From a virus (lineage: Duplodnaviria > Caudoviricetes): 61,093 nucleotides of DNA. How positions within the stretch are numbered: position 1 is the stretch's first letter; the number at the start of each line of letters is the position of its first letter. A model generated the notes under the pieces. That model did no database searches, had not been told where the DNA came from, and saw only the letters and a list, made by a program, of their open reading frames with translations. Location: IMG/VR virus record IMGVR_UViG_3300044716_000219, positions 1-61,093 of that record, one strand, 5' to 3'. The position numbers were made by a program, and so were the translations under genes. This document shows, one piece after another, positions 1 to 61,093 of the stretch.

Positions 1-127
1 TCAATAACACAATGTCGTTCAGCATCTTCGTGTACGCCTGATCGATGGGGGCCATCGACTTGATTGGCTGGGTGACGAACGTCACCGAATACAGAAGCGC
101 CACGACAATGAAGCACAGGATGCAGGT
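1..127. repeat. Terminal overlap, copy 1 (circular assembly)
   Basis: Bases 1-127 are identical to 60967-61093. Confidence 0.97.
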
Positions 128-36446: not shown

Positions 36447-36830
36447 ATGAAACTCTCAGATGCAGTCAGCCTGTACATAAAGATGCGGGACAAGAAAGCA
36501 CAGATGAAAGCAGAGTTTGATGCCAGTGTCGCTCCTCTAAACGAGAAGATGGAAAAGCTAGAAGCCAAGCTGCTAGACGTTTTCAACAAGACCGGCATGG
36601 ACTCAGTCAAGACCGAATTCGGAACAGCGTATACCACGACTCGCGTCACTGCAAGCGTGGCAGATCGAGATATTTTTATGACCCATGTCAGGGAAAACGA
36701 TGACTGGGCGCTGTTGGAAGTTCGTGCTTCTAAATCTGCTGTTGAACAGTACCGTGAAAACAACAATGACTTACCCCCGGGGATATCTATGCGTGAAGAA
36801 CGTGTAGTAAATGTCCGCCGTTCGTCGTAA
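36447..36830 (+). CDS. Conserved replication-module protein
   Basis: Coiled coil plus SVKTEFGTAY; LPPGI. Confidence 0.7.
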   Translation: MKLSDAVSLYIKMRDKKAQMKAEFDASVAPLNEKMEKLEAKLLDVFNKTGMDSVKTEFGTAYTTTRVTASVADRDIFMTHVRENDDWALLEVRASKSAVEQYRENNNDLPPGISMREERVVNVRRSS

Positions 36831-36858
36831 ACTCTTTCCCCCAACCACTGAAAAAACC

Positions 36859-42082: not shown

Positions 42083-45000
42083 TTAGTCAATCTGCTCTGC
42101 AATCTTAGTCTCACGCTTGCGCTGCTCTTGTGGTGCGCGCAACAAACTCGACAGTGGCTGAGGTTTTAAGTCATTACGCCTACGGGCTTCTTGCAGATTC
42201 TTCCACGATTCGCGTGCTTTGGCCATACCCTCGCTGTCTTGTTCGCGATATGCCTTGGCAAACTGATTTTTAATTTTAGTCGAACGCTCAGTAAAGTTCT
42301 TTTCCAAATCCAAAGCAGATTGGCGAGCTTGATAAGTCTCAGCAACCTTGGCAGATGGCAGACCCATGGCAGCAAACACTTGGCCTACTTGGGAAACATC
42401 ATCCGCACTTAGGATCACATCGCCGTTACGACGTGTCAAGCCTTCACCAGCAATGCGTCCTGCTTTGAGCATGTCGCTGATACCCTTTGGCATTGTCTGC
42501 TCGAGGCCGCGATATATATCTCCATTTGCCATAAGGCCAAGGCCGTCTACCATACGAGCGGTCATACCACCGGCTGCACCGCCAGCAATAGTACCGATAG
42601 CTTGAGCAACTCCAGCTTGGGTAGTCAAGTCAAGATCAGCAAATGGTGCAATTGAAAGCATGTTGCCAGCACCAATCTTGCCGGACAAATCTACACCGAT
42701 CAGTGTTGGCGTGCCGCGCATCACAAGCTGCGACCACTCTGGGCCAAGCTCTTTACGCATCCACTCAGTTAAATCAAACGGCTCGTCTTCGTCACCCAAG
42801 AAGAATCCTGCAAGCGCTGCAACGGCGGCGTAGCCGGGTAGACCCATCGCGCCAGCGAAGATTCCGGTGTGAGCAAGGGAGAAGCCCAGTGTACGCAATG
42901 CTGCCTTACGCTCTTTGGGATCGCGAATGTCGTTAAGTAATTTGACGTAGAAACCGATCTGTACCAACTGAAACTTGCGGAACTGCAAAGCAATCTTACC
43001 GAAATTGCTGTTGAAGATTCTCGGTGCATTCATCGACGTGTAGTCGCCGTGCGTATCTTGCAGAATGCCGGCAGCGTATTCGATGGCGGCTTGTTTGTTG
43101 CCTTTCGTTCTAGCCAGCTCAAGACGGTAGGCAGCCATGGCGGTAGACAAACGGTTAATCGCTTCAGTCTTTTGGATGGCAAGGCGCATAGCCTTATTGA
43201 CACGCTGTGCCGACTGGCTGAGCTTGCTATCTGCTTCGACCTTATATTCGTTGATCTCGGTTGCCAAACCAATGTCAATACTTCCACGCTTGACCAAAGT
43301 GTCAATCGCTTCACGCACGTCATCAGGCACTTGGGTAAAGTCAAACTGTTGACCGAACAGCTTAGTGTTTTTAAACAACGGGCCAAGTTCAGAGTACGCC
43401 GTCCACAATGCAGTGCCGACTTTGTTGTAGTCGTGACGACCTGCCATAGCAGGTACAGACATCATGAATGGCTGTGTCAAGTTCTGAATGTAATAGCCGG
43501 GGCTCGTTGCCAAGAAATACTTGGATGACAAGTTCGTCAGCTTTTCCACCCATGGGGTGACGTTGTAGTTTAGAGACTCAACGTAGCGTGTGCTTAGTTC
43601 GTCAAACAGTTCTGTCCGGCGAGTCACATCCCCCTTCTTGGACTCTTTGCGCATAGCTTGCAGAGACTCTTGAATCTCAGGACTAAACTCAATCGAAGCC
43701 AAGAAGTTGGCATCAGCGCGACCTTGTGTTGTGAAGGACTGAAGCATATCTACTTCACCGGAAATACCACGGCGACGCATCTCAGACTTACGGGCGCTGT
43801 CTTCTGCCAAAGTCTCAAGGTACAACTGACTAATCAAATTGTAGACCTTAGCGTTAGCAGTACCTTCGTTGGCGTCTACGGTTGCACGCAGTTTTGTCAA
43901 TGCAGGCAATAAAGCCTCACTGTTGAACTTGTCCATGGCTTCGGCGCGTTTGATAATGCCTGTCGACAAGCCGGGGAACTCTTCGCCAATTTTTGCTTCT
44001 AAGTTGCGGGCTTCCCACTTGGAGTCAACAAAGGACACTTGGTAGTGCTCTGGGTCTTTTTCCAGTTCTTTGATTCGCTTAGTATCTTTGGCGTTCACAG
44101 CAGCAACATATTCGTCAGATCGACTGACAACTGCCCAAGGGCCAGTACGCTTAATTGGCGCATAGGGTAAACCCTCGCGAATCTTGAACAGAGTTTTAAA
44201 GCGCTCTAGTGTGTTGGCTTTCTCGGTCTTCAGTTCGGTTTCCGTCTTTGTGTCACCAGCTTGTTTAGCAATTGCGATAAGCGCGTCGTACTCGGAGGTA
44301 GCAGAATTTAGAACAGTCTGCTTTTTCTCTGACAGCATAGTATTACCGTGCTGAAACACCGCTTTGACAAACGCCTGAGCTTTAGGCTTTAAAGCGTTAA
44401 ACATGGCAGCCATTGCAGGATCGGCTTTCAACGAGCCGCTGTCATAACCCCACTTGGCTTGGCGTGTAGATTCAAGCAAGAAATCATTAACAGTACCGGG
44501 GCCTCGGCCTTTGTGTTCGTCTTCGATCGTGGCATACATATCAGCGATCTTCTCGATGCGGCGCTCACGCTCGCTAGCAGCGGCTGTTCTGTTGGCTAAA
44601 GCTTTGGCAAAACGTTCAGCAGGAAGGCCCGCTTTGGTGGCACGAGCAACCAGATCACTGGTGAATACCACGTAGTCCAAACCTCGGCCCATGATGTCAC
44701 CAAGACCACCAACAATGTTAGTAGCCGGCTGTCTTAGCTGCTGGGGTAGCTTGTTAATGTTGCGATTGATTGCACCTTGATTTGGCGCGTTCTTCCCAAA
44801 CTGCATACGTTGACGGTCAGCCGCCGCTTGAGAGCCGACGCGGAAAATATTCTGGTCGTTAAACACAACGATGTTGCGGGTTGGGTTGCCTAACCGAATG
44901 ACTTTTCGTTTAAGGCGTTCGACATCTTGGCGAACTTGTTCTGCTTGAAACTCCGCAGCTGTCCTAGCATCTACCGCATTCAACCACGTCTTGCGAGCGT

Positions 45001-48000
45001 ATTCTTTCTGCTCTGGAGGAGCTTTATCTTGCAAAGACTCCCACTTATCGGCTTCTTTGGTAGCTTTCTCAACCGCAAGTTCTTTTTCCCGCAGAACTTC
45101 TTGCAGTTGCTGTAGTTTGATTTGCGTTTGGAATTGATTGCCGCGACTGTTTTGATCTAAGAACTTAAGAGCTGGAATGCCGAGCTTTTCATCCAAGTAC
45201 TTGGACACGATTTCCTTAAAGCCGGTGTTAGCCAATCGCTTGTTGTAGTCCTCAACGTCAAACTCTTCACTGACAGCACCAGTTCGCACTTCAACAAAAC
45301 CAAGCCCGCGATAAAACTCATCGCCGGTCATGTCAGCGAGATCAGCACCAACTTGGTCTTCAACGTCTTCGCGCAAAATATCTGATATGGACGCTTCAAT
45401 TTTTGCCAAGATGGCTGGTTGTTTAGACAACGGCTCATCCCAGTTAAGAACATCTTCATCAGCAATGGGAATGTCTACACGCATGAGGCTGCCTTTAGGG
45501 GCAACTGTAGTTTCTGGGGTAACAGAAAACTTTGCGGGATCAAGCGACTTTATGGCAGCAAGGTCTTCACTTGAAGTTTCAATGGTGCTTGTAAGGACAT
45601 CGACATAACCCTGCTCTGGGCCAGAGGGCTTTGAGCTTGACCGTTTTTCAGCTAAAGTTCTTTTTGCAGACTCTAAAACAGTCTTCTTCTTTGCAATATA
45701 ACGTTCTAGGTCGGCGCTTGCTTCTTTAATAGCTTCAGCAGCGGTTAGCCCACGCTCGAACATTAACTTGTACACTGGAACAGTTGCAGCGTTTTGTTCA
45801 GGGCTAGCACGTCCTATTGCGACGCCGTCGTAAAGGGCTTTTGCTTTAGTAGTTACTGTTTTGCGTTCCACGTCAGCTGACCAGTAGCCCTTGGCAATTC
45901 CAACACTTTGTGCAAAGTAAGAACCCCAGCCATAAGCCTGAGCGCCTTCGCCAGTGCCCATAAAGTCATGGTTAAATCTACGGAAAGCTGCTGCAGTTCC
46001 GTGCCACGTGCCATTAATTTCCAAACGAGCCGCACCAAACGCCAAGTTAACAACGTCTTGAGCGGTTAAAGATTCTGGTTTGAAACCGAGCTTACGAGCG
46101 GCAATCTTGAACGCAGCCCACAACGTACGGAACCAGTCCATTAGAGGGCCTGACTCTTTGGAAACTGCTGTAGGATCAATGCCAGCATCGATGGCTTCTT
46201 CGAGGAAGTAAGCTAAGAGTTCGTTGTTTTGCTGAGTTTCAGCTGTGCCAGCGCTTTCAAAACGTTTCGTTGCGCGTTGCGCTAATACAGATTCAATAGA
46301 ACCATCTTTCTTCTTAGCCCAGCTTTGTAACTGCTCGATTAATTTGTTGTAGGTTTGTTTTGTAAGTAGATTTTCCAAACCAAGGTGAGCCCCAACCTCG
46401 TGCATGAACTTGGCACGTCCAGAACCCCGATTAATTCGATCTGCGATCAAATACGCACGGCCATCTGTGGCAACGCCGTAGGCATTCTCTTTTTGAATTG
46501 CCTCACCAACCGCTCTAACTTTTGAATCGGGGTCGTTGAGTAGATCGTCTATGGTGTTAACCACCATGAGTTTGCGACCGGGTATGTCGGCACGGATGAA
46601 ATCTTTTAACTCTGCCAGCAGTTGTTTTGCCGTGTATGGTTTCTTGGCTTTGCCGTCTTTACCAAACAGCATGTTCTCTTCTTTGGCAACCACAGTGCGA
46701 TCAGCAGCAGCCTGTGTTGTAGCTGACTTGACAGGCGTAGAAACTGTCTTCGTCACTGGCTGTACACCCTCACGCACGAGGCGGTCATCAGGGACATTTC
46801 CGGTGATAAAGTCATTGACTGTATTCTGTGCATCAGGAACCACGAACAACTTAGAGCCATCCATGTTGTCGCCGTACTTGGTAATCAAGTCACGGTAAGT
46901 TTCTTTGTCAACGTTGATACAGCCAAATGAGTAACGAGAATCGCCAGCGGCTTCGCTTTTTAAAGCAGCAGCACGTTGGGGAGCGTCTTTTTCTTTTAGC
47001 CAGACAGAATGCATAAATGTCACAACTGCGTCCGGGTCTTCCAAAGCAAACACTTTGCCGAAGTCGTAGTCACCTGCAGTTACTGCTGCGCTACCGCCTT
47101 TAGCTGCATCAATTATTTTGATGCCGAACAAACCGGCTGGAGTCACGCGGTTTTGTGGCAGGTCGTTGTTACCGATATACAAGTCACCTTTAGCCAGACC
47201 AAACAAAGACTTCTTTTGCAGAACAAAAGAACCGTCGGCTTTAAAAACAAAGATACGACCGCTTGGTTTATCGGCAATCGTAATAAACTTGTTACCAATT
47301 TTGTCTTTCAAAGCAGGAACTAAACGGGCATAAGCCTGTTTGCCAGCGTCAGACATCATGGCAGCTTCGGCAGGAACCTCGGCCAACACTTGTTGCGTGG
47401 TTACTTTTGTCTCTTGTGGAATCACCATAAATGATTCAATTTGAGAGATTGCTCCGGGGTTAAAAATCATGGCCACCGAAAGCACACCTGCATGCAACGT
47501 TTTAATAATGTCGCGAATAGCACCTGCCACCGCTTCTGCACCCTTGGTAGCGTACAGAACAACATCTTCTTTAACCTTGGCTAAGAACTCAGCGCTATCT
47601 CGTTTAAGGTTGTAGTGTTTTTCAAGCCGGTTAACTTGCGGTGCAGGCAAAGCAGCAACACGCGGGCCAACGGTTTCCTCAATCACGCGAGCTTCAACAT
47701 CAATAGTCACTGGCTCTTTGGTCAGCAACTGCTGCAAGCCCATCTCTTTAGCAACTACGGGTTTACCATTGGTACGAACAGCCAAATCGGTCAGGTATTC
47801 CTGCTCAAGCTTAGTCAACTGCTCGTATGGAACCAAACCGGGTGTCTTATCAGAAAGGCTCTCCCACAGGGCTCTGCCTCTATCTACTTGGCCTTTGGCT
47901 TGGCCTTGGGTTTGACCTTTGCCGGCAGGCTTTTCGGTACGCCGTACTTGGCCGCCCACTCCTTGGCCAGCTTGGGTTTCTGGCTGAACAGGTACGACTG

Positions 48001-50866
48001 CTGCGCCTTGGACTTGAACGGCATTTGTTTTCTCCAGTTTAGCCATCTTGACAGACAGCTCTTTAGTTTGACCGCTTTGGAAATCAACGGTCACGATGGT
48101 TGCATCTCCGTCGCCGGAGAATCCTTTGACCACGCCGGTACCCAACTTAGGGTTTACTACGGTGTCGCCAACTTCAAGACCCTTACGGTCAGCAGCACGT
48201 TTAGCAGCGGCTTCGGCACGAAGTTTTTCAGCTTCAGCTGCTTTTGCGGCATCTTTTTCTTCGGCGGCTTTTTGAGCAGCTTCAGTTTTCTTTTCAGCTT
48301 TAGTTTGTTTGCGTTCAGCTTTAGGAGCAGTAATACTTTCTGTCAGCGCAGTGTAGTCAGCTGTTAAAGCGTTAATGCGTTCGGTAGCAGCAGCCTCGGC
48401 TTGAGCCAATCCAAGTTGTTTTAGTTCGGCGGCAGCGGCTTGCAATTCAGCAATTTTGTCTGCAATGTTTACCAACTTCACGGCCATCTGGCTTCCGGCG
48501 GTACTGGCTTTCTGCCATTCGCGAGAATCATCTAAGCTGGCAAACATTTCACCGGCTTCACCTTCAAGACCTAAGTTCTTCAAAGCAGACGTCAAATCAC
48601 CAGACTCAATGTTTCCTTTGACCTGATCGATTTTTTCACTGAGCTCCGACATCTTGGCAATGTCAGCTTTAGAGGGCGACGCTTTAGCTTCCAGTTTGGC
48701 AAGATCACTTTCCAATTTGCCGAGTTCTGTCGAGGCGGCTTTCTGTGCGGAGTCAATGCCCAAATGAGTAAACACTTGGTTGCGATCAAAGCCCATGTCC
48801 TCTGCAATATCTGCAAGGATTTCTGGGTTACCGATCTGACGAACGCGAGACGCATCAATACCAAAGGTGTCAGCAACTTCCTTAGCGACGTTACCTTTGT
48901 AGCCTTCAGGTACAGATTTACGGGCAAGAATATACGCCTGCAAGATTTTGCGGTCGCGCTCTTTATTCTTTGACTTGGCGAGGTGCTGGTCAATGACAGC
49001 TTCCATTTCGTTATTGCCAAAGTCGAGTTGATCTGCGCGACCGCCTTCTTGGTCTTGGCGCATGGCTTCAATCTCGGCAGCGTTGCCTGTGGCACGAGCA
49101 ATCTCTAACGCATCATCTGAAGTGTCGACCAGATTAGTAGTACCGGGTGCACTGCGAGTAGTTTGGCCTTGGTCTACAACGGTAGATGGTTGGCCACTGG
49201 TGCTTGGAAGAACTCCAGCTTGTTGAGGTGGGGCTCCAGCTGCGGTGGTATCTCCACCCACTGTTCCTTGGACAGCAACATCTGATCCTGCAGCTCCCAC
49301 AGTTCCCGGAACGACAGCGCCCCCGACTCCCAAGCCTCCTGCAGGCTGTTGTACAGTAGAAATTCCTGTGCCACTTGATGCCTCCTTGCGTGCTTGAATA
49401 ATAGCAGCATCGAGAAGTTGTTGCACTTTCTCCAAACGCTTAGGAGTCATTGGCTTTGGGTCTGAGGCGTAATTCCACACGTCCTGAAATACAGGGCTAG
49501 ACAACTCAAGGTTGTTTTCCTTAGCGAGTTTCTGTATCTCATCAAAAAACTGCAAAGACGAGGGCGTAGCGATAACACCGAATGTGTCGCGCAACTCGGT
49601 TCTGGGAGTAACTGTCAAGGGAGCTGGAGCGCTACCCAACAAATTTGCTCCGCTAAGAGGGTTGCCCATCAACGAAGACGCCGCTGTACCTGTAAGACTT
49701 TCGCCCAACGGTTGAGTCAGATCAGTTTCTTCACTAATTAAAGTTGGTGTTGTTAGTTTAGGGCCGCCTAAAGGATTAGCCATTAACGCAGCAGGATCAG
49801 TACCCGTGAGGCTTGCTCCAAGAGGTGCTTTTGTTTCAAGACCAACTTGTGGCTGCTCTGGAGCCAGCAAATTTAATTCTTGCTGAGGGGCTTGATACTG
49901 TTCACTACGACGCCAGCCGCCAGCTGCACCACCAATAGTGCCGCCAAGAAGCGCACCGCCAATAGCTGATTCTTTATAGCGAGCAAGCGCAGCATCAGAC
50001 AAGAACTGCTCGTTAGGGTCAACGGCCATACGGCCAAGCTGACTAGTCATTTCCTGAAGGGTCTCAGTGCCACCTTCTACCAAACCGGTAGTTAAGCCTG
50101 TGGCTGCTGTGCGAGCCACACCGCCTCTAAATCCAGAAAGGTCATCAAGCGCTCTAACACCCGATCGGAAACCCTGCTGCCTAGCCAACGCGCCTTCTAG
50201 ACCGAGAGCGTTCAGAGCTGAGTAGGGGACACCAAGAGCTGCTGCAGCACCTAAATTTGTTTGACCGTCAGCCTGTTCTCGTTGGGCTTGCAGAATATCG
50301 CCGACTGCGGATGGGTAGCCAGCAGTGACACCGCCAAGAGTCTGGCCTGTACGGAGCGCTCTAGTAGCCTGTGCGGCAGCGTTTACATCTCCGGCAGTTT
50401 GTGCAGCGCCGAGGGCTGCACGAGTACCAGTCATCAAACCACGAGCAACTAAACCACCACCAAGGGCCTCAGCCATGTATGGGGCGGAGCCAATAGCCAA
50501 ACCGCCAATGTAGCTTGGCAGATCAGAAACACCTCGAACATCTTCAAAGCTTTCAATGGCACCTTGTGCGCGAGCTCGTTCGGAGGCTACGTTAGCTTCA
50601 AACTCATTGGCCTCACGACCACGACGGAAGAAGTCTGCGCCTGTAACCGCTTCACCCAAACCATACAAACCTGCTTGATATCGGTCAAGAGCTGCACCAG
50701 TGCGAAGTCCAGAGATTCCAGACTGTGTAGGCTTGTAACCATATTCCGAAGCAATCCTACCGGGGGATACACCCGCCGCAGTAGAAGCTAATTGCAGAAG
50801 CTGCTCATCGCTTTTATCGTTAGCAAACGCCCCGAGGGCGGATCGCAGGTCTGCAATAGACGGCAT
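42083..50866 (-). CDS. Giant polyvalent internal virion/ejection protein (2927 aa)
   Basis: Last of three ejection genes; Tudor-like, LDT-like, HEVGAH, ART-like and PLxRFG-like (YAPIKRTG) segments. Confidence 0.85.
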   Translation of the reverse strand: MPSIADLRSALGAFANDKSDEQLLQLASTAAGVSPGRIASEYGYKPTQSGISGLRTGAALDRYQAGLYGLGEAVTGADFFRRGREANEFEANVASERARAQGAIESFEDVRGVSDLPSYIGGLAIGSAPYMAEALGGGLVARGLMTGTRAALGAAQTAGDVNAAAQATRALRTGQTLGGVTAGYPSAVGDILQAQREQADGQTNLGAAAALGVPYSALNALGLEGALARQQGFRSGVRALDDLSGFRGGVARTAATGLTTGLVEGGTETLQEMTSQLGRMAVDPNEQFLSDAALARYKESAIGGALLGGTIGGAAGGWRRSEQYQAPQQELNLLAPEQPQVGLETKAPLGASLTGTDPAALMANPLGGPKLTTPTLISEETDLTQPLGESLTGTAASSLMGNPLSGANLLGSAPAPLTVTPRTELRDTFGVIATPSSLQFFDEIQKLAKENNLELSSPVFQDVWNYASDPKPMTPKRLEKVQQLLDAAIIQARKEASSGTGISTVQQPAGGLGVGGAVVPGTVGAAGSDVAVQGTVGGDTTAAGAPPQQAGVLPSTSGQPSTVVDQGQTTRSAPGTTNLVDTSDDALEIARATGNAAEIEAMRQDQEGGRADQLDFGNNEMEAVIDQHLAKSKNKERDRKILQAYILARKSVPEGYKGNVAKEVADTFGIDASRVRQIGNPEILADIAEDMGFDRNQVFTHLGIDSAQKAASTELGKLESDLAKLEAKASPSKADIAKMSELSEKIDQVKGNIESGDLTSALKNLGLEGEAGEMFASLDDSREWQKASTAGSQMAVKLVNIADKIAELQAAAAELKQLGLAQAEAAATERINALTADYTALTESITAPKAERKQTKAEKKTEAAQKAAEEKDAAKAAEAEKLRAEAAAKRAADRKGLEVGDTVVNPKLGTGVVKGFSGDGDATIVTVDFQSGQTKELSVKMAKLEKTNAVQVQGAAVVPVQPETQAGQGVGGQVRRTEKPAGKGQTQGQAKGQVDRGRALWESLSDKTPGLVPYEQLTKLEQEYLTDLAVRTNGKPVVAKEMGLQQLLTKEPVTIDVEARVIEETVGPRVAALPAPQVNRLEKHYNLKRDSAEFLAKVKEDVVLYATKGAEAVAGAIRDIIKTLHAGVLSVAMIFNPGAISQIESFMVIPQETKVTTQQVLAEVPAEAAMMSDAGKQAYARLVPALKDKIGNKFITIADKPSGRIFVFKADGSFVLQKKSLFGLAKGDLYIGNNDLPQNRVTPAGLFGIKIIDAAKGGSAAVTAGDYDFGKVFALEDPDAVVTFMHSVWLKEKDAPQRAAALKSEAAGDSRYSFGCINVDKETYRDLITKYGDNMDGSKLFVVPDAQNTVNDFITGNVPDDRLVREGVQPVTKTVSTPVKSATTQAAADRTVVAKEENMLFGKDGKAKKPYTAKQLLAELKDFIRADIPGRKLMVVNTIDDLLNDPDSKVRAVGEAIQKENAYGVATDGRAYLIADRINRGSGRAKFMHEVGAHLGLENLLTKQTYNKLIEQLQSWAKKKDGSIESVLAQRATKRFESAGTAETQQNNELLAYFLEEAIDAGIDPTAVSKESGPLMDWFRTLWAAFKIAARKLGFKPESLTAQDVVNLAFGAARLEINGTWHGTAAAFRRFNHDFMGTGEGAQAYGWGSYFAQSVGIAKGYWSADVERKTVTTKAKALYDGVAIGRASPEQNAATVPVYKLMFERGLTAAEAIKEASADLERYIAKKKTVLESAKRTLAEKRSSSKPSGPEQGYVDVLTSTIETSSEDLAAIKSLDPAKFSVTPETTVAPKGSLMRVDIPIADEDVLNWDEPLSKQPAILAKIEASISDILREDVEDQVGADLADMTGDEFYRGLGFVEVRTGAVSEEFDVEDYNKRLANTGFKEIVSKYLDEKLGIPALKFLDQNSRGNQFQTQIKLQQLQEVLREKELAVEKATKEADKWESLQDKAPPEQKEYARKTWLNAVDARTAAEFQAEQVRQDVERLKRKVIRLGNPTRNIVVFNDQNIFRVGSQAAADRQRMQFGKNAPNQGAINRNINKLPQQLRQPATNIVGGLGDIMGRGLDYVVFTSDLVARATKAGLPAERFAKALANRTAAASERERRIEKIADMYATIEDEHKGRGPGTVNDFLLESTRQAKWGYDSGSLKADPAMAAMFNALKPKAQAFVKAVFQHGNTMLSEKKQTVLNSATSEYDALIAIAKQAGDTKTETELKTEKANTLERFKTLFKIREGLPYAPIKRTGPWAVVSRSDEYVAAVNAKDTKRIKELEKDPEHYQVSFVDSKWEARNLEAKIGEEFPGLSTGIIKRAEAMDKFNSEALLPALTKLRATVDANEGTANAKVYNLISQLYLETLAEDSARKSEMRRRGISGEVDMLQSFTTQGRADANFLASIEFSPEIQESLQAMRKESKKGDVTRRTELFDELSTRYVESLNYNVTPWVEKLTNLSSKYFLATSPGYYIQNLTQPFMMSVPAMAGRHDYNKVGTALWTAYSELGPLFKNTKLFGQQFDFTQVPDDVREAIDTLVKRGSIDIGLATEINEYKVEADSKLSQSAQRVNKAMRLAIQKTEAINRLSTAMAAYRLELARTKGNKQAAIEYAAGILQDTHGDYTSMNAPRIFNSNFGKIALQFRKFQLVQIGFYVKLLNDIRDPKERKAALRTLGFSLAHTGIFAGAMGLPGYAAVAALAGFFLGDEDEPFDLTEWMRKELGPEWSQLVMRGTPTLIGVDLSGKIGAGNMLSIAPFADLDLTTQAGVAQAIGTIAGGAAGGMTARMVDGLGLMANGDIYRGLEQTMPKGISDMLKAGRIAGEGLTRRNGDVILSADDVSQVGQVFAAMGLPSAKVAETYQARQSALDLEKNFTERSTKIKNQFAKAYREQDSEGMAKARESWKNLQEARRRNDLKPQPLSSLLRAPQEQRKRETKIAEQID
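47884..48024 (-). CDS. Nested out-of-frame basic protein, 46 aa (MPFKSKAQQ...)
   Basis: GGAG SD 8 nt before ATG; overlaps a low-complexity linker of the host frame. Confidence 0.6.
   Translation of the reverse strand: MPFKSKAQQSYLFSQKPKLAKEWAAKYGVPKSLPAKVKPKAKPKAK
49174..49374 (-). CDS. Nested out-of-frame acidic protein, 66 aa (MAQEFLLYNSLQEAW...)
   Basis: AAGGAGG SD 6 nt before GTG; overlaps a G/A/V/P-rich linker. Confidence 0.6.
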   Translation of the reverse strand: MAQEFLLYNSLQEAWESGALSFRELWELQDQMLLSKEQWVEIPPQLEPHLNKLEFFQAPVANHLPL

Positions 50867-53575: not shown

Positions 53576-53992
53576 TTACTCCTTGCGCAGCCAACGACAG
53601 GTGTCAGGCCGCATTACCAAAATCTGCATATCAGCGCCGGGAGCGCCGTCTTTCATTACAAACTCTTCTTCAAACCCAAGATGCTTATCGAATTCTATGA
53701 TATGTGGTTCATTTGTGGGCACCATACCAGTGAGTCTTTTTAACTGGCAGTGGTTAAATGCATAGTTGCACACATGCTCGAAGAGGGGAATGATTTGCTT
53801 CGTCTGCCGTGCGATGGCTATATGACATGTAGCGTTTGATCCATTGTAGTTGTTTATGACTACTCCGGCTAGAACCTCGTCACCCTGCATGACACCGAGT
53901 GCGTAGAAACTTCCCCAGTCTGCGTTCTGACCGACACGCTCAGCAACCCAAGCGCCAATACGATCTTTCTGGTCAAAGACAAGTTCTGCCAT
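53576..53992 (-). CDS. GNAT-like acetyltransferase
   Basis: YAFNHCQLKRLTGMV..N......HLGFEEE (RimJ/RimL-like). Confidence 0.75.
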   Translation of the reverse strand: MAELVFDQKDRIGAWVAERVGQNADWGSFYALGVMQGDEVLAGVVINNYNGSNATCHIAIARQTKQIIPLFEHVCNYAFNHCQLKRLTGMVPTNEPHIIEFDKHLGFEEEFVMKDGAPGADMQILVMRPDTCRWLRKE

Positions 53993-60966: not shown

Positions 60967-61093
60967 TCAATAACACAATGTCGTTCAGCATCTTCGTGTA
61001 CGCCTGATCGATGGGGGCCATCGACTTGATTGGCTGGGTGACGAACGTCACCGAATACAGAAGCGCCACGACAATGAAGCACAGGATGCAGGT
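60967..61093. repeat. Terminal overlap, copy 2
   Basis: Identical to 1-127. Confidence 0.97.

Follow-up and report, generated by a model that had tools for sequence, protein, structure and literature searches.

A PcrA/UvrD-type Tudor domain inside a giant phage protein, a candidate docking module for host RNA polymerase

The window analysed here is the whole of IMG/VR record IMGVR_UViG_3300044716_000219 (61,093 bp, GC 50%), a complete phage record with terminal repeats, and it contains a giant open reading frame (ORF), P0001, encoding a protein of 2927 residues. We found that residues 897-946 of this protein, LEVGDTVVNPKLGTGVVKGFSGDGDATIVTVDFQSGQTKELSVKMAKLEK (50 residues, present letter for letter in the translation), are a true homologue of the C-terminal Tudor domain of the helicases PcrA and UvrD, with a similarity far beyond chance. 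In the cellular enzymes this domain binds the beta subunit of RNA polymerase (RNAP), as the initial annotation had stated, and also UvrB (PMC5397179; PMC8318588; Kawale & Burmann). We propose that the phage copy serves to target the host, as an adaptor that docks on the TGE hairpin of RNAP beta and perhaps on UvrB too, a reading to which we assign a probability of roughly 0.55. The carrier, P0001, is a giant polyvalent protein of the PLxRFG type whose gene lies amid virion genes, and it is probably virion-associated.

Sequence and fold kinship of the Tudor domain

A UvrD/PcrA Tudor-like module had been annotated at 48030-48180. The peptide given for it is an exact match, while the position was 1-2 nt off and came with no strand: frame 1 of this interval runs into stops on both strands, and the frame of the peptide is that of the minus-strand ORF (Table 1). 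When the 50-mer was searched against Pfam, the family PcrA_UvrD_tudor (PF21196) aligned over its whole model (positions 1-48 of 48) with 22.9 bits and an E-value of 7.7e-5, the Pfam gathering cut-off being 23.9 bits; longer pieces of P0001 around the domain scored 18-20 bits with this family. All 18 clade members matched PF21196 at E<=0.01 (best E 7.2e-8), and the relative P0102 reached 26.0 bits, over the cut-off. The NCBIfam models uvrD, pcrA and PRK11773 also matched, with E-values of 8.5e-7 to 5.3e-5, the match being confined to the last ~60 model positions, that is, to the extreme C-termini. A phmmer search of the Protein Data Bank (PDB) gave Deinococcus radiodurans UvrD (4c2t, E 6.2e-4) and then six further UvrD/PcrA C-terminal domains; at E<=10 these made up 7 of the 18 rows, the other 11 being antibody and cadherin noise with E>0.5. 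With a profile built from the 18 clade members, the nine PDB matches at E<=1 were all UvrD/PcrA chains (best E 1.1e-8). Weak Pfam co-matches of the peptide were CarD_TRCF_RID (PF02559; E 0.038) and CBM_35.

The AlphaFold2 (AF2) model showed a long helix followed by a five-strand barrel, with strands at 33-36, 40-48, 55-60, 65-69 and 76-79 (model numbering) and a predicted local distance difference test score (pLDDT) of about 86 in the core. Beyond the barrel pLDDT dropped to 42-57, and the value for the whole model was 68.8 because of the linkers. Searching the PDB with Foldseek, we obtained as best match the C-terminal domain (CTD) of Escherichia coli UvrD (7egs_B), with a target-normalised template-modelling score (TMt) of 0.87 and a root-mean-square deviation of 1.0 Å over 51 columns; 7EGS is the complex of the E. 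coli RNAP lobe with UvrD-CTD. Ranks 1-8 of the list were all UvrD/PcrA Tudor domains, with 7EGT, the UvrD-CTD/UvrB complex, at rank 8, and the next structural matches, at ranks 9-19, were the Mfd RNAP-interacting domain (RID) and CarD. The predicted five-strand Tudor/SH3-like barrel thus superposes on solved UvrD/PcrA C-terminal domains.

Mfd RID and the N-terminal Tudor-like domains of CarD/CdnL (PF02559) belong to the same fold class as the phage Tudor and bind RNAP beta. Their match to it was far weaker, however, and they bind beta1 rather than the SI1 hairpin (PMC5397179), and we do not count the phage domain as a member of that family. One could still ask whether the resemblance is due to chance, or to a generic SH3/KOW-like barrel without specific kinship to UvrD/PcrA: the score of the P0001 copy lies below the PF21196 cut-off, and the co-matches to CarD_TRCF_RID and CBM_35 point the same way. 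Against this, the clade profile retrieved UvrD/PcrA chains only, every one of the 18 members matched PF21196 and P0102 did so over the cut-off, three NCBIfam helicase models matched at the C-terminal Tudor and nowhere else, and the eight best structural matches were UvrD/PcrA Tudor domains. These matches already refute the reading, to which we leave a negligible probability. A purely generic SH3/KOW match, which the initial annotation had named as the outcome that would undo its proposal, is ruled out by the clade profile and the fold, both of which point to UvrD/PcrA. The proposed module is therefore borne out by PF21196, the NCBIfam models, the 18-member profile and Foldseek, the suggested profile search against the Tudor family having given the full-length alignment, with the P0001 copy just under the cut-off, and the match in all 18 members.

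Distribution and conservation among relatives

A region-restricted search of metagenomes gave 121 relatives of P0001, large proteins of 1.6-3.1 thousand residues, with the Tudor domain present in 106 and absent from 15 (P0107-P0121). In the three of these 15 that we examined (P0113, P0114 and P0119), the domain had been removed by a clean deletion of ~55 residues, and closely similar flanking sequence was kept. A domain that comes and goes in this way is more readily understood as an accessory module directed at the host than as a part that the structure requires, and the natural Tudor-plus and Tudor-minus relatives form a ready comparison. When 30 relatives were aligned at full length, the Tudor was the most conserved 50-residue window, with a majority fraction of 0.76; the PLxRFG domain reached 0.63 and the protein as a whole 0.47. 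Other domains found in relatives were ART-PolyVal (P0026), LPD23 (P0007 and P0102) and ParB-like domains, which mark the family as 'polyvalent proteins'.

A pattern search of IMG/VR gave 64 matches, of which we confirmed 25, and every one of the 25 lay within a long open frame. Seventeen of these frames were complete (2,217-3,134 residues), and eight were truncated at the end of a contig or locus; in frames with an intact upstream end, the Tudor began 812-1,013 residues from the frame start. The 18-member profile, run against 1.84 billion representatives, gave 875 matches at E<=0.001. The top 14 were clade members, followed by UvrD-length proteins with C-terminal matches and by many short proteins. 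Of ten matches sampled outside the clade, seven contained PF21196; three of these were UvrD helicases or pieces of them, two had Tudors in tandem and two were small proteins. The remaining three lacked it, among them a BRCA2 false positive (P0232). Since P0130 was a false positive as well, 875 is an upper bound on the number of true Tudor domains. Stand-alone and tandem copies of the Tudor occur in the representative library (P0126, P0133 and P0135). P0126 (387 residues) and P0133 (221 residues) hold two or three PcrA/UvrD Tudors in tandem, with PF21196 E-values of 4.6e-26 and 7.7e-25, and there are also small proteins with a single such domain that match DUF3553 as well.

Among GenBank phages, megablast of the P0001 gene gave no match, and when a 71-residue piece with the Tudor was compared by tblastn with 50,697 phage records, a single, marginal match resulted, in MT835525.1. 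This record ('Bacteriophage sp.', unannotated) aligned at 36692-36835 with 47.9% identity over 48 residues (E 0.03). The viral structures of BFVD, in which giant proteins may be under-represented, gave no match at E<=0.001 and many weak ones. Rhizobium phage RHph_TM27A, the nearest cultured relative checked, had no PF21196 match.

Partner-binding face, predicted docking and candidate roles

The PcrA C-terminal domain docks on a beta-hairpin, the 'helicase interaction motif', in the SI1 insert of RpoB (PMC8318588). The motif reads [VIL]-D-x-x-T-G-E-[VIL]-[VILT], is IDESTGELI in E. coli and is found in UvrB too; changing its Glu to Ala or Lys abolishes binding, and the competitor for the site is UvrB, not Mfd (PMC8318588). 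On the side of the helicase, each of the substitutions H681A, W684A, K712A and L714A in Geobacillus stearothermophilus PcrA severely cuts RNAP pulldown, and K708A in UvrD lowers RNAP remodelling (PMC5397179). The UvrD C-terminal domain also has a non-specific affinity for nucleic acids (Kawale & Burmann).

Printed alignments allowed us to place five residues of this face on the phage protein. PcrA F705, of the 'aromatic cage', is kept as F929, K712 (K708 in UvrD) as K935 and L714 as L937, whereas H681 is replaced by N905 and W684 by L908. Three of the five are thus kept, and of the four residues critical for PcrA pulldown it is the Lys and the Leu that remain. Across the clade L937 is invariant and position 935 is Lys or Arg. 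The His/aromatic pair of the family is missing, N905 and L908 being invariant in the 18-member alignment. Three kept residues together with two invariant replacements suggest that the face is under selection without being identical to the cellular one. In comparison with the PcrA/UvrD Tudor domains (PF21196; 5DMA, 6YI2, 7EGS, 7EGT, 9DQS and 4C2T), the phage domain belongs to the same sequence family and has the five-strand barrel and the Phe/Lys/Leu face, while it differs in lying inside a 2927-residue protein without a helicase domain and in having Asn and Leu instead of the His and the aromatic residue.

The initial annotation had suggested a multimer prediction with RNAP subunits, and the complex was modelled in one job, with the Tudor domain (residues 20-85 in the first row of the 18-member alignment) against residues 140-460 of RPOB_ECOLI. 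The interaction prediction score from aligned errors (ipSAE) was 0.74, 0.74 and 0.76, versus 0.00 for the highest-scoring of three controls. Of 80 solved complexes 58 attain this ipSAE mark, as do 2 of 110 mismatched pairs; these counts are only roughly valid here because our own alignment was the input. The runs shared 100% of their contacts, with a partner pLDDT of 86. On RpoB, the predicted interface comprises residues 300, 302, 304-309 and 312, plus 214, 216-218 and 357-360, and the motif IDESTGELI (RpoB 302-310) falls within it. On the Tudor side it would include N905, K907, L908, F916-G920, K935-S938 and M941-K943. The complex model therefore supports docking of the Tudor on the helicase-interaction hairpin of RpoB, the same predicted site as that of PcrA/UvrD. 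The multimer check thus placed the interface on the IDESTGELI hairpin (ipSAE 0.74), a result that may be coloured by memory of 7EGS.

In the mechanism that we favour, the captured PcrA/UvrD Tudor, which has a flexible linker on either side and lies in the interior of P0001, is part of a protein that would be packaged and then delivered with the phage DNA. The Tudor would bind the exposed TGE-triad beta-hairpin on the SI1/lobe of RNAP beta (a hairpin also present on UvrB). P0001, of which few copies would be delivered, would in this way be held at host RNAP, together with its cargo domains, at the start of infection. As a consequence, RNAP might be captured locally at the entering DNA, or cargo enzymes might be steered to RNAP; in some relatives this cargo would be a complete ADP-ribosyltransferase (ART). 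The genome of T7 is internalised by host RNAP, a precedent for transcription-coupled DNA entry. That the Tudor, on ejection, catches host RNAP by the SI1 hairpin of beta at the entry site and physically couples entry to the first transcription in the manner of T7, in a phage with no RNAP gene of its own, is speculative and seems to us quite doubtful; were it so, ART-bearing relatives would modify the captured polymerase on the spot.

RNAP is the more abundant carrier of the TGE motif, which counts against the idea that the Tudor targets UvrB, or another host protein with a TGE hairpin, and thereby ties P0001 to nucleotide excision repair on the incoming DNA or disturbs it. The UvrB motif does bind the PcrA C-terminal domain in competition with RNAP (PMC8318588), the UvrD-CTD/UvrB complex is among the fold matches, and the changes of His to Asn and Trp to Leu could retune partner preference. 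We nevertheless regard a UvrB target as unlikely: the predicted RpoB interface is confident and lies on the motif, and no clear benefit to the phage is established. Alternatively, the Tudor might work inside the phage and bind DNA or a phage partner such as the portal, the capsid interior or a further internal protein while particles are assembled or filled. A conserved phage partner would also be in keeping with the very strong conservation; the non-specific nucleic-acid affinity of the UvrD C-terminal domain (Kawale & Burmann) and the frequency of Tudor/SH3-like barrels in phage proteins, with many weak BFVD matches, also speak for it. Yet the domain is absent in 15 of the 121 relatives, with the adjoining sequence kept in the three examined, which makes it dispensable for building the particle. 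Moreover, a six-frame translation of the phage contained no strict helicase-interaction motif, the six Lys/Arg versus seven Asp/Glu of the Tudor are a poor fit for DNA binding, and its closest kin by sequence and fold are cellular RNAP-binding domains. We thus hold a phage-internal role to be improbable.

The initial annotation had also considered that the injected protein displaces UvrD or Mfd. As a decoy, the Tudor would drive UvrD/PcrA (or Mfd) off RNAP throughout the cell and thereby disable the control of R-loops or transcription-coupled repair. UvrD does have this binding surface and the predicted site in common with the Tudor, and blocking the association of PcrA with RNAP raises R-loop levels (PMC8318588). 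However, a virion presumably carries few copies of this 2927-residue protein, to be set against thousands of RNAP molecules per cell; cell-wide displacement of UvrD is hard to square with this number, which fits local tethering better than competition. Displacement of Mfd is unlikely in itself, as Mfd has its site on beta1 and is no competitor for that of PcrA (PMC5397179, PMC8318588). Overall, we give the decoy very little credence.

Docking on RNAP beta has to be held against several points. The P0001 copy lies 1 bit below the PF21196 cut-off (22.9 versus 23.9), and 15 of the 121 relatives dispense with the Tudor. Two of the four residues critical in PcrA are changed, and because the replacements, Asn905 for His and Leu908 for Trp, are invariant in the clade, specificity may have moved to another partner; the UvrD C-terminal domain itself also binds UvrB and, non-specifically, DNA. 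Since a like complex, 7EGS, is solved, the pass in complex prediction may be memory and would then attest likeness rather than binding, and E. coli RpoB served as a stand-in for that of the phage host. The packaging and ejection of P0001 are deduced from its family and gene context. Finally, the ART-like match in P0001 spans only ~40 model positions, and thus the protein may carry no RNAP-modifying enzyme.

Carrier protein, gene neighbourhood and compared systems

P0001 resembles polyvalent proteins in having several unrelated domains in an ORF that is part of a block of virion genes. Two of these domains, Tudor and PLxRFG, are firmly assigned, and the helix-turn-helix (HTH)-like, HExxH, YkuD-like and ART-like parts are weaker (Table 1). 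The C-terminal domain characteristic of the PLxRFG group matched NF032893 well above the cut-off of 100 bits, and phrog_10089 ('DarB-like antirestriction') matched the C-terminal 655 residues with an E-value of 4.6e-62. By tblastn, it was this PLxRFG/DarB-like part only that was found in GenBank phages; the 43 records concerned are about 55-63 kb long, and identities were 25-29%. A feature of the cellular family that P0001 lacks is the position of the Tudor, which is internal rather than at the extreme C-terminus of a superfamily 1 helicase; domain searches detected no helicase domain in the protein.

Table 1. Coordinates of P0001, its parts and a neighbouring gene in the window
Feature	Position	Strand	Residues of P0001 and basis
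P0001, giant ORF	42083..50866	minus	2927 residues; ORF list and translation
HTH resembling sigma-70 region 4 (weak)	48833..48961	minus	636-678; includes FGIDASRVRQIG
Helical linker, Ala/Lys/Glu-rich, upstream of Tudor	48179..48769	minus	700-896; A 23%, K 12%, E 12%
PcrA/UvrD-type Tudor domain	48029..48178	minus	897-946; sequence and fold
Low-complexity Gly/Gln/Val-rich linker, downstream of Tudor	47837..48028	minus	947-1010; G 17%, Q 16%
Possible YkuD-like (L,D-transpeptidase fold) region	46832..47449	minus	1140-1345; lead only
HEVGAH (HExxH) motif	46385..46402	minus	1489-1494; kept in 30-sequence consensus
ART-PolyVal-like N-terminal part	45878..46006	minus	1621-1663; model positions 10-46 of 140, E 0.03-0.1, below cut-off
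C-terminal PLxRFG domain	42098..44062	minus	2269-2923; NF032893 E 8.1e-97, 325 bits
Acyl-CoA N-acyltransferase-like gene	53576-53992	minus	phrog_4470 E 2.7e-25; between tail and ejection-protein-like genes

Downstream of P0001, on the same strand, are genes whose products match a virion structural/DNA-ejection protein, an acyltransferase and a tail protein, as well as one with a match to the internal virion protein family phrog_511 (E 1.7e-130); the record also encodes a portal, a terminase, a major head protein, a DNA polymerase, a helicase and a primase. Iyer et al. (2017, PMC5512222) predict that polyvalent proteins enter the cell together with the injected DNA, and P0001 is most likely packaged and ejected with the DNA, as judged by its family and gene context. 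In its view of the carrier as a virion-type protein, the initial annotation agrees with what we found, a PLxRFG/DarB-like polyvalent protein encoded among virion genes. Its statement that the phage encodes no RNAP held insofar as a search of the record for a T7-type RNA polymerase (PF00940) came out negative; this negative is weak, since control genomes gave no match either.

As for the host, the nearest isolates are Rhizobium phages, with a portal identity of 37.5%, and the record has no tRNA genes. The sole related locus in species-representative genomes (L003) lies on contig JBJOKE010000046.1 (118.8 kb) of a Pseudomonadota metagenome-assembled genome and is 40% identical to P0001 over residues 1401-2919; either the locus is a prophage or the contig may come from a phage and have been mis-binned. 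These data are too little for a host to be named.

Among known systems, the polyvalent proteins, including those of the P1 DarB-like/PLxRFG kind, are likewise giant, multi-domain and encoded among virion genes (PMC5512222). The text of that paper brings up UvrD solely for complete helicases within plasmid proteins of actinomycetes, and neither 'Tudor' nor 'SH3' is mentioned in it, although its supplementary domain tables might list the domain. With the same reservation about these tables, we found in the literature no description of a UvrD-type Tudor in a phage virion protein; a paper that touches on both Tudor domains and polyvalent proteins of phages concerns the Tudor domains of BREX host helicases. 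The domain and the kind of carrier are each already known, and it is the combination of a UvrD-type Tudor with a PLxRFG polyvalent carrier that appears to be undescribed.

For T4 Alt, to our knowledge, no UvrD-type targeting domain is known. This injected ADP-ribosyltransferase, which modifies host RNAP, offers the same concept of virion-delivered action on RNAP early in infection (PMC5512222). The likeness is conceptual: it is the relative P0026 that joins the Tudor to a complete ART, the ART-like region of P0001 being partial. The virion RNA polymerase of N4 is a precedent for a giant delivered transcription protein (PMC5512222), whereas the record of P0001 gave no PF00940 match, the weak negative described above.

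If the Tudor binds RNAP, a protein that delivers a phage genome would be physically and directly connected to the transcription machinery of the host, through a module taken from the host's repair helicase. The TGE hairpin of RNAP beta would then be a hub exploited by phages, and the way in which low-copy injected polyvalent proteins find their target would be explained. The domain would also be a compact natural tag for RNAP beta, of about 55 residues.

Residues 636-678 would, if truly sigma-4-like, form a second RNAP-related module about 220 residues upstream of the Tudor. An 88-residue piece holding them matched PF04545 with an E-value of 5.1e-4 and 19.9 bits (cut-off 24.1), five of eight clade members did so at E<=0.05, and the profile matches in the PDB were mostly to sigma region 4, with E-values of 0.03-0.5. 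Foldseek gave nothing at E<=0.001 for these residues, the best match to sigma domain 4 having an E-value of 1.1. With a score below the PF04545 cut-off and no support from the fold search, we rejected the assignment to sigma-70 region 4; the segment is a generic HTH at most.

The whole ART-PolyVal domain of P0026 (E 1.1e-28) lies 340 residues downstream of the Tudor of that protein. The sequences of P0001 and P0026 part after residue 1657, and the alignment with the ART of P0026 is convincing for the first ~60 residues only. Residues 1650-2000 form a cassette that varies among relatives, with an occupancy of 0.34-0.68 in the alignment of 30. The area of the partial ART-PolyVal match extends over positions 44900-46006 of the window (minus strand), residues about 1621-1990.

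Inside the putative YkuD-like region, residues 1313-1318 read S-F-G-C-I-N, which we take to resemble the catalytic motif of YkuD L,D-transpeptidases. A protein atlas placed residues 1140-1345 with YkuD clusters at 0.84-0.89, at the level of a lead, and Pfam and PDB sequence searches with these residues gave no YkuD match, only NHL-repeat matches that look spurious. The HEVGAH region had no family match in a Pfam search, and the motif may be a putative metallopeptidase site of the kind that polyvalent proteins often carry. In a simple hydropathy scan P0001 showed weak peaks only (maximum 1.55), and we therefore make no claim of membrane insertion. Lastly, an exact direct repeat of 127 bp is common to the two ends of the window (1-127 and 60967-61093). 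It may be genuine, as a terminal repeat, or the genome may be circular or circularly permuted and the repeat an overlap left by the assembly.

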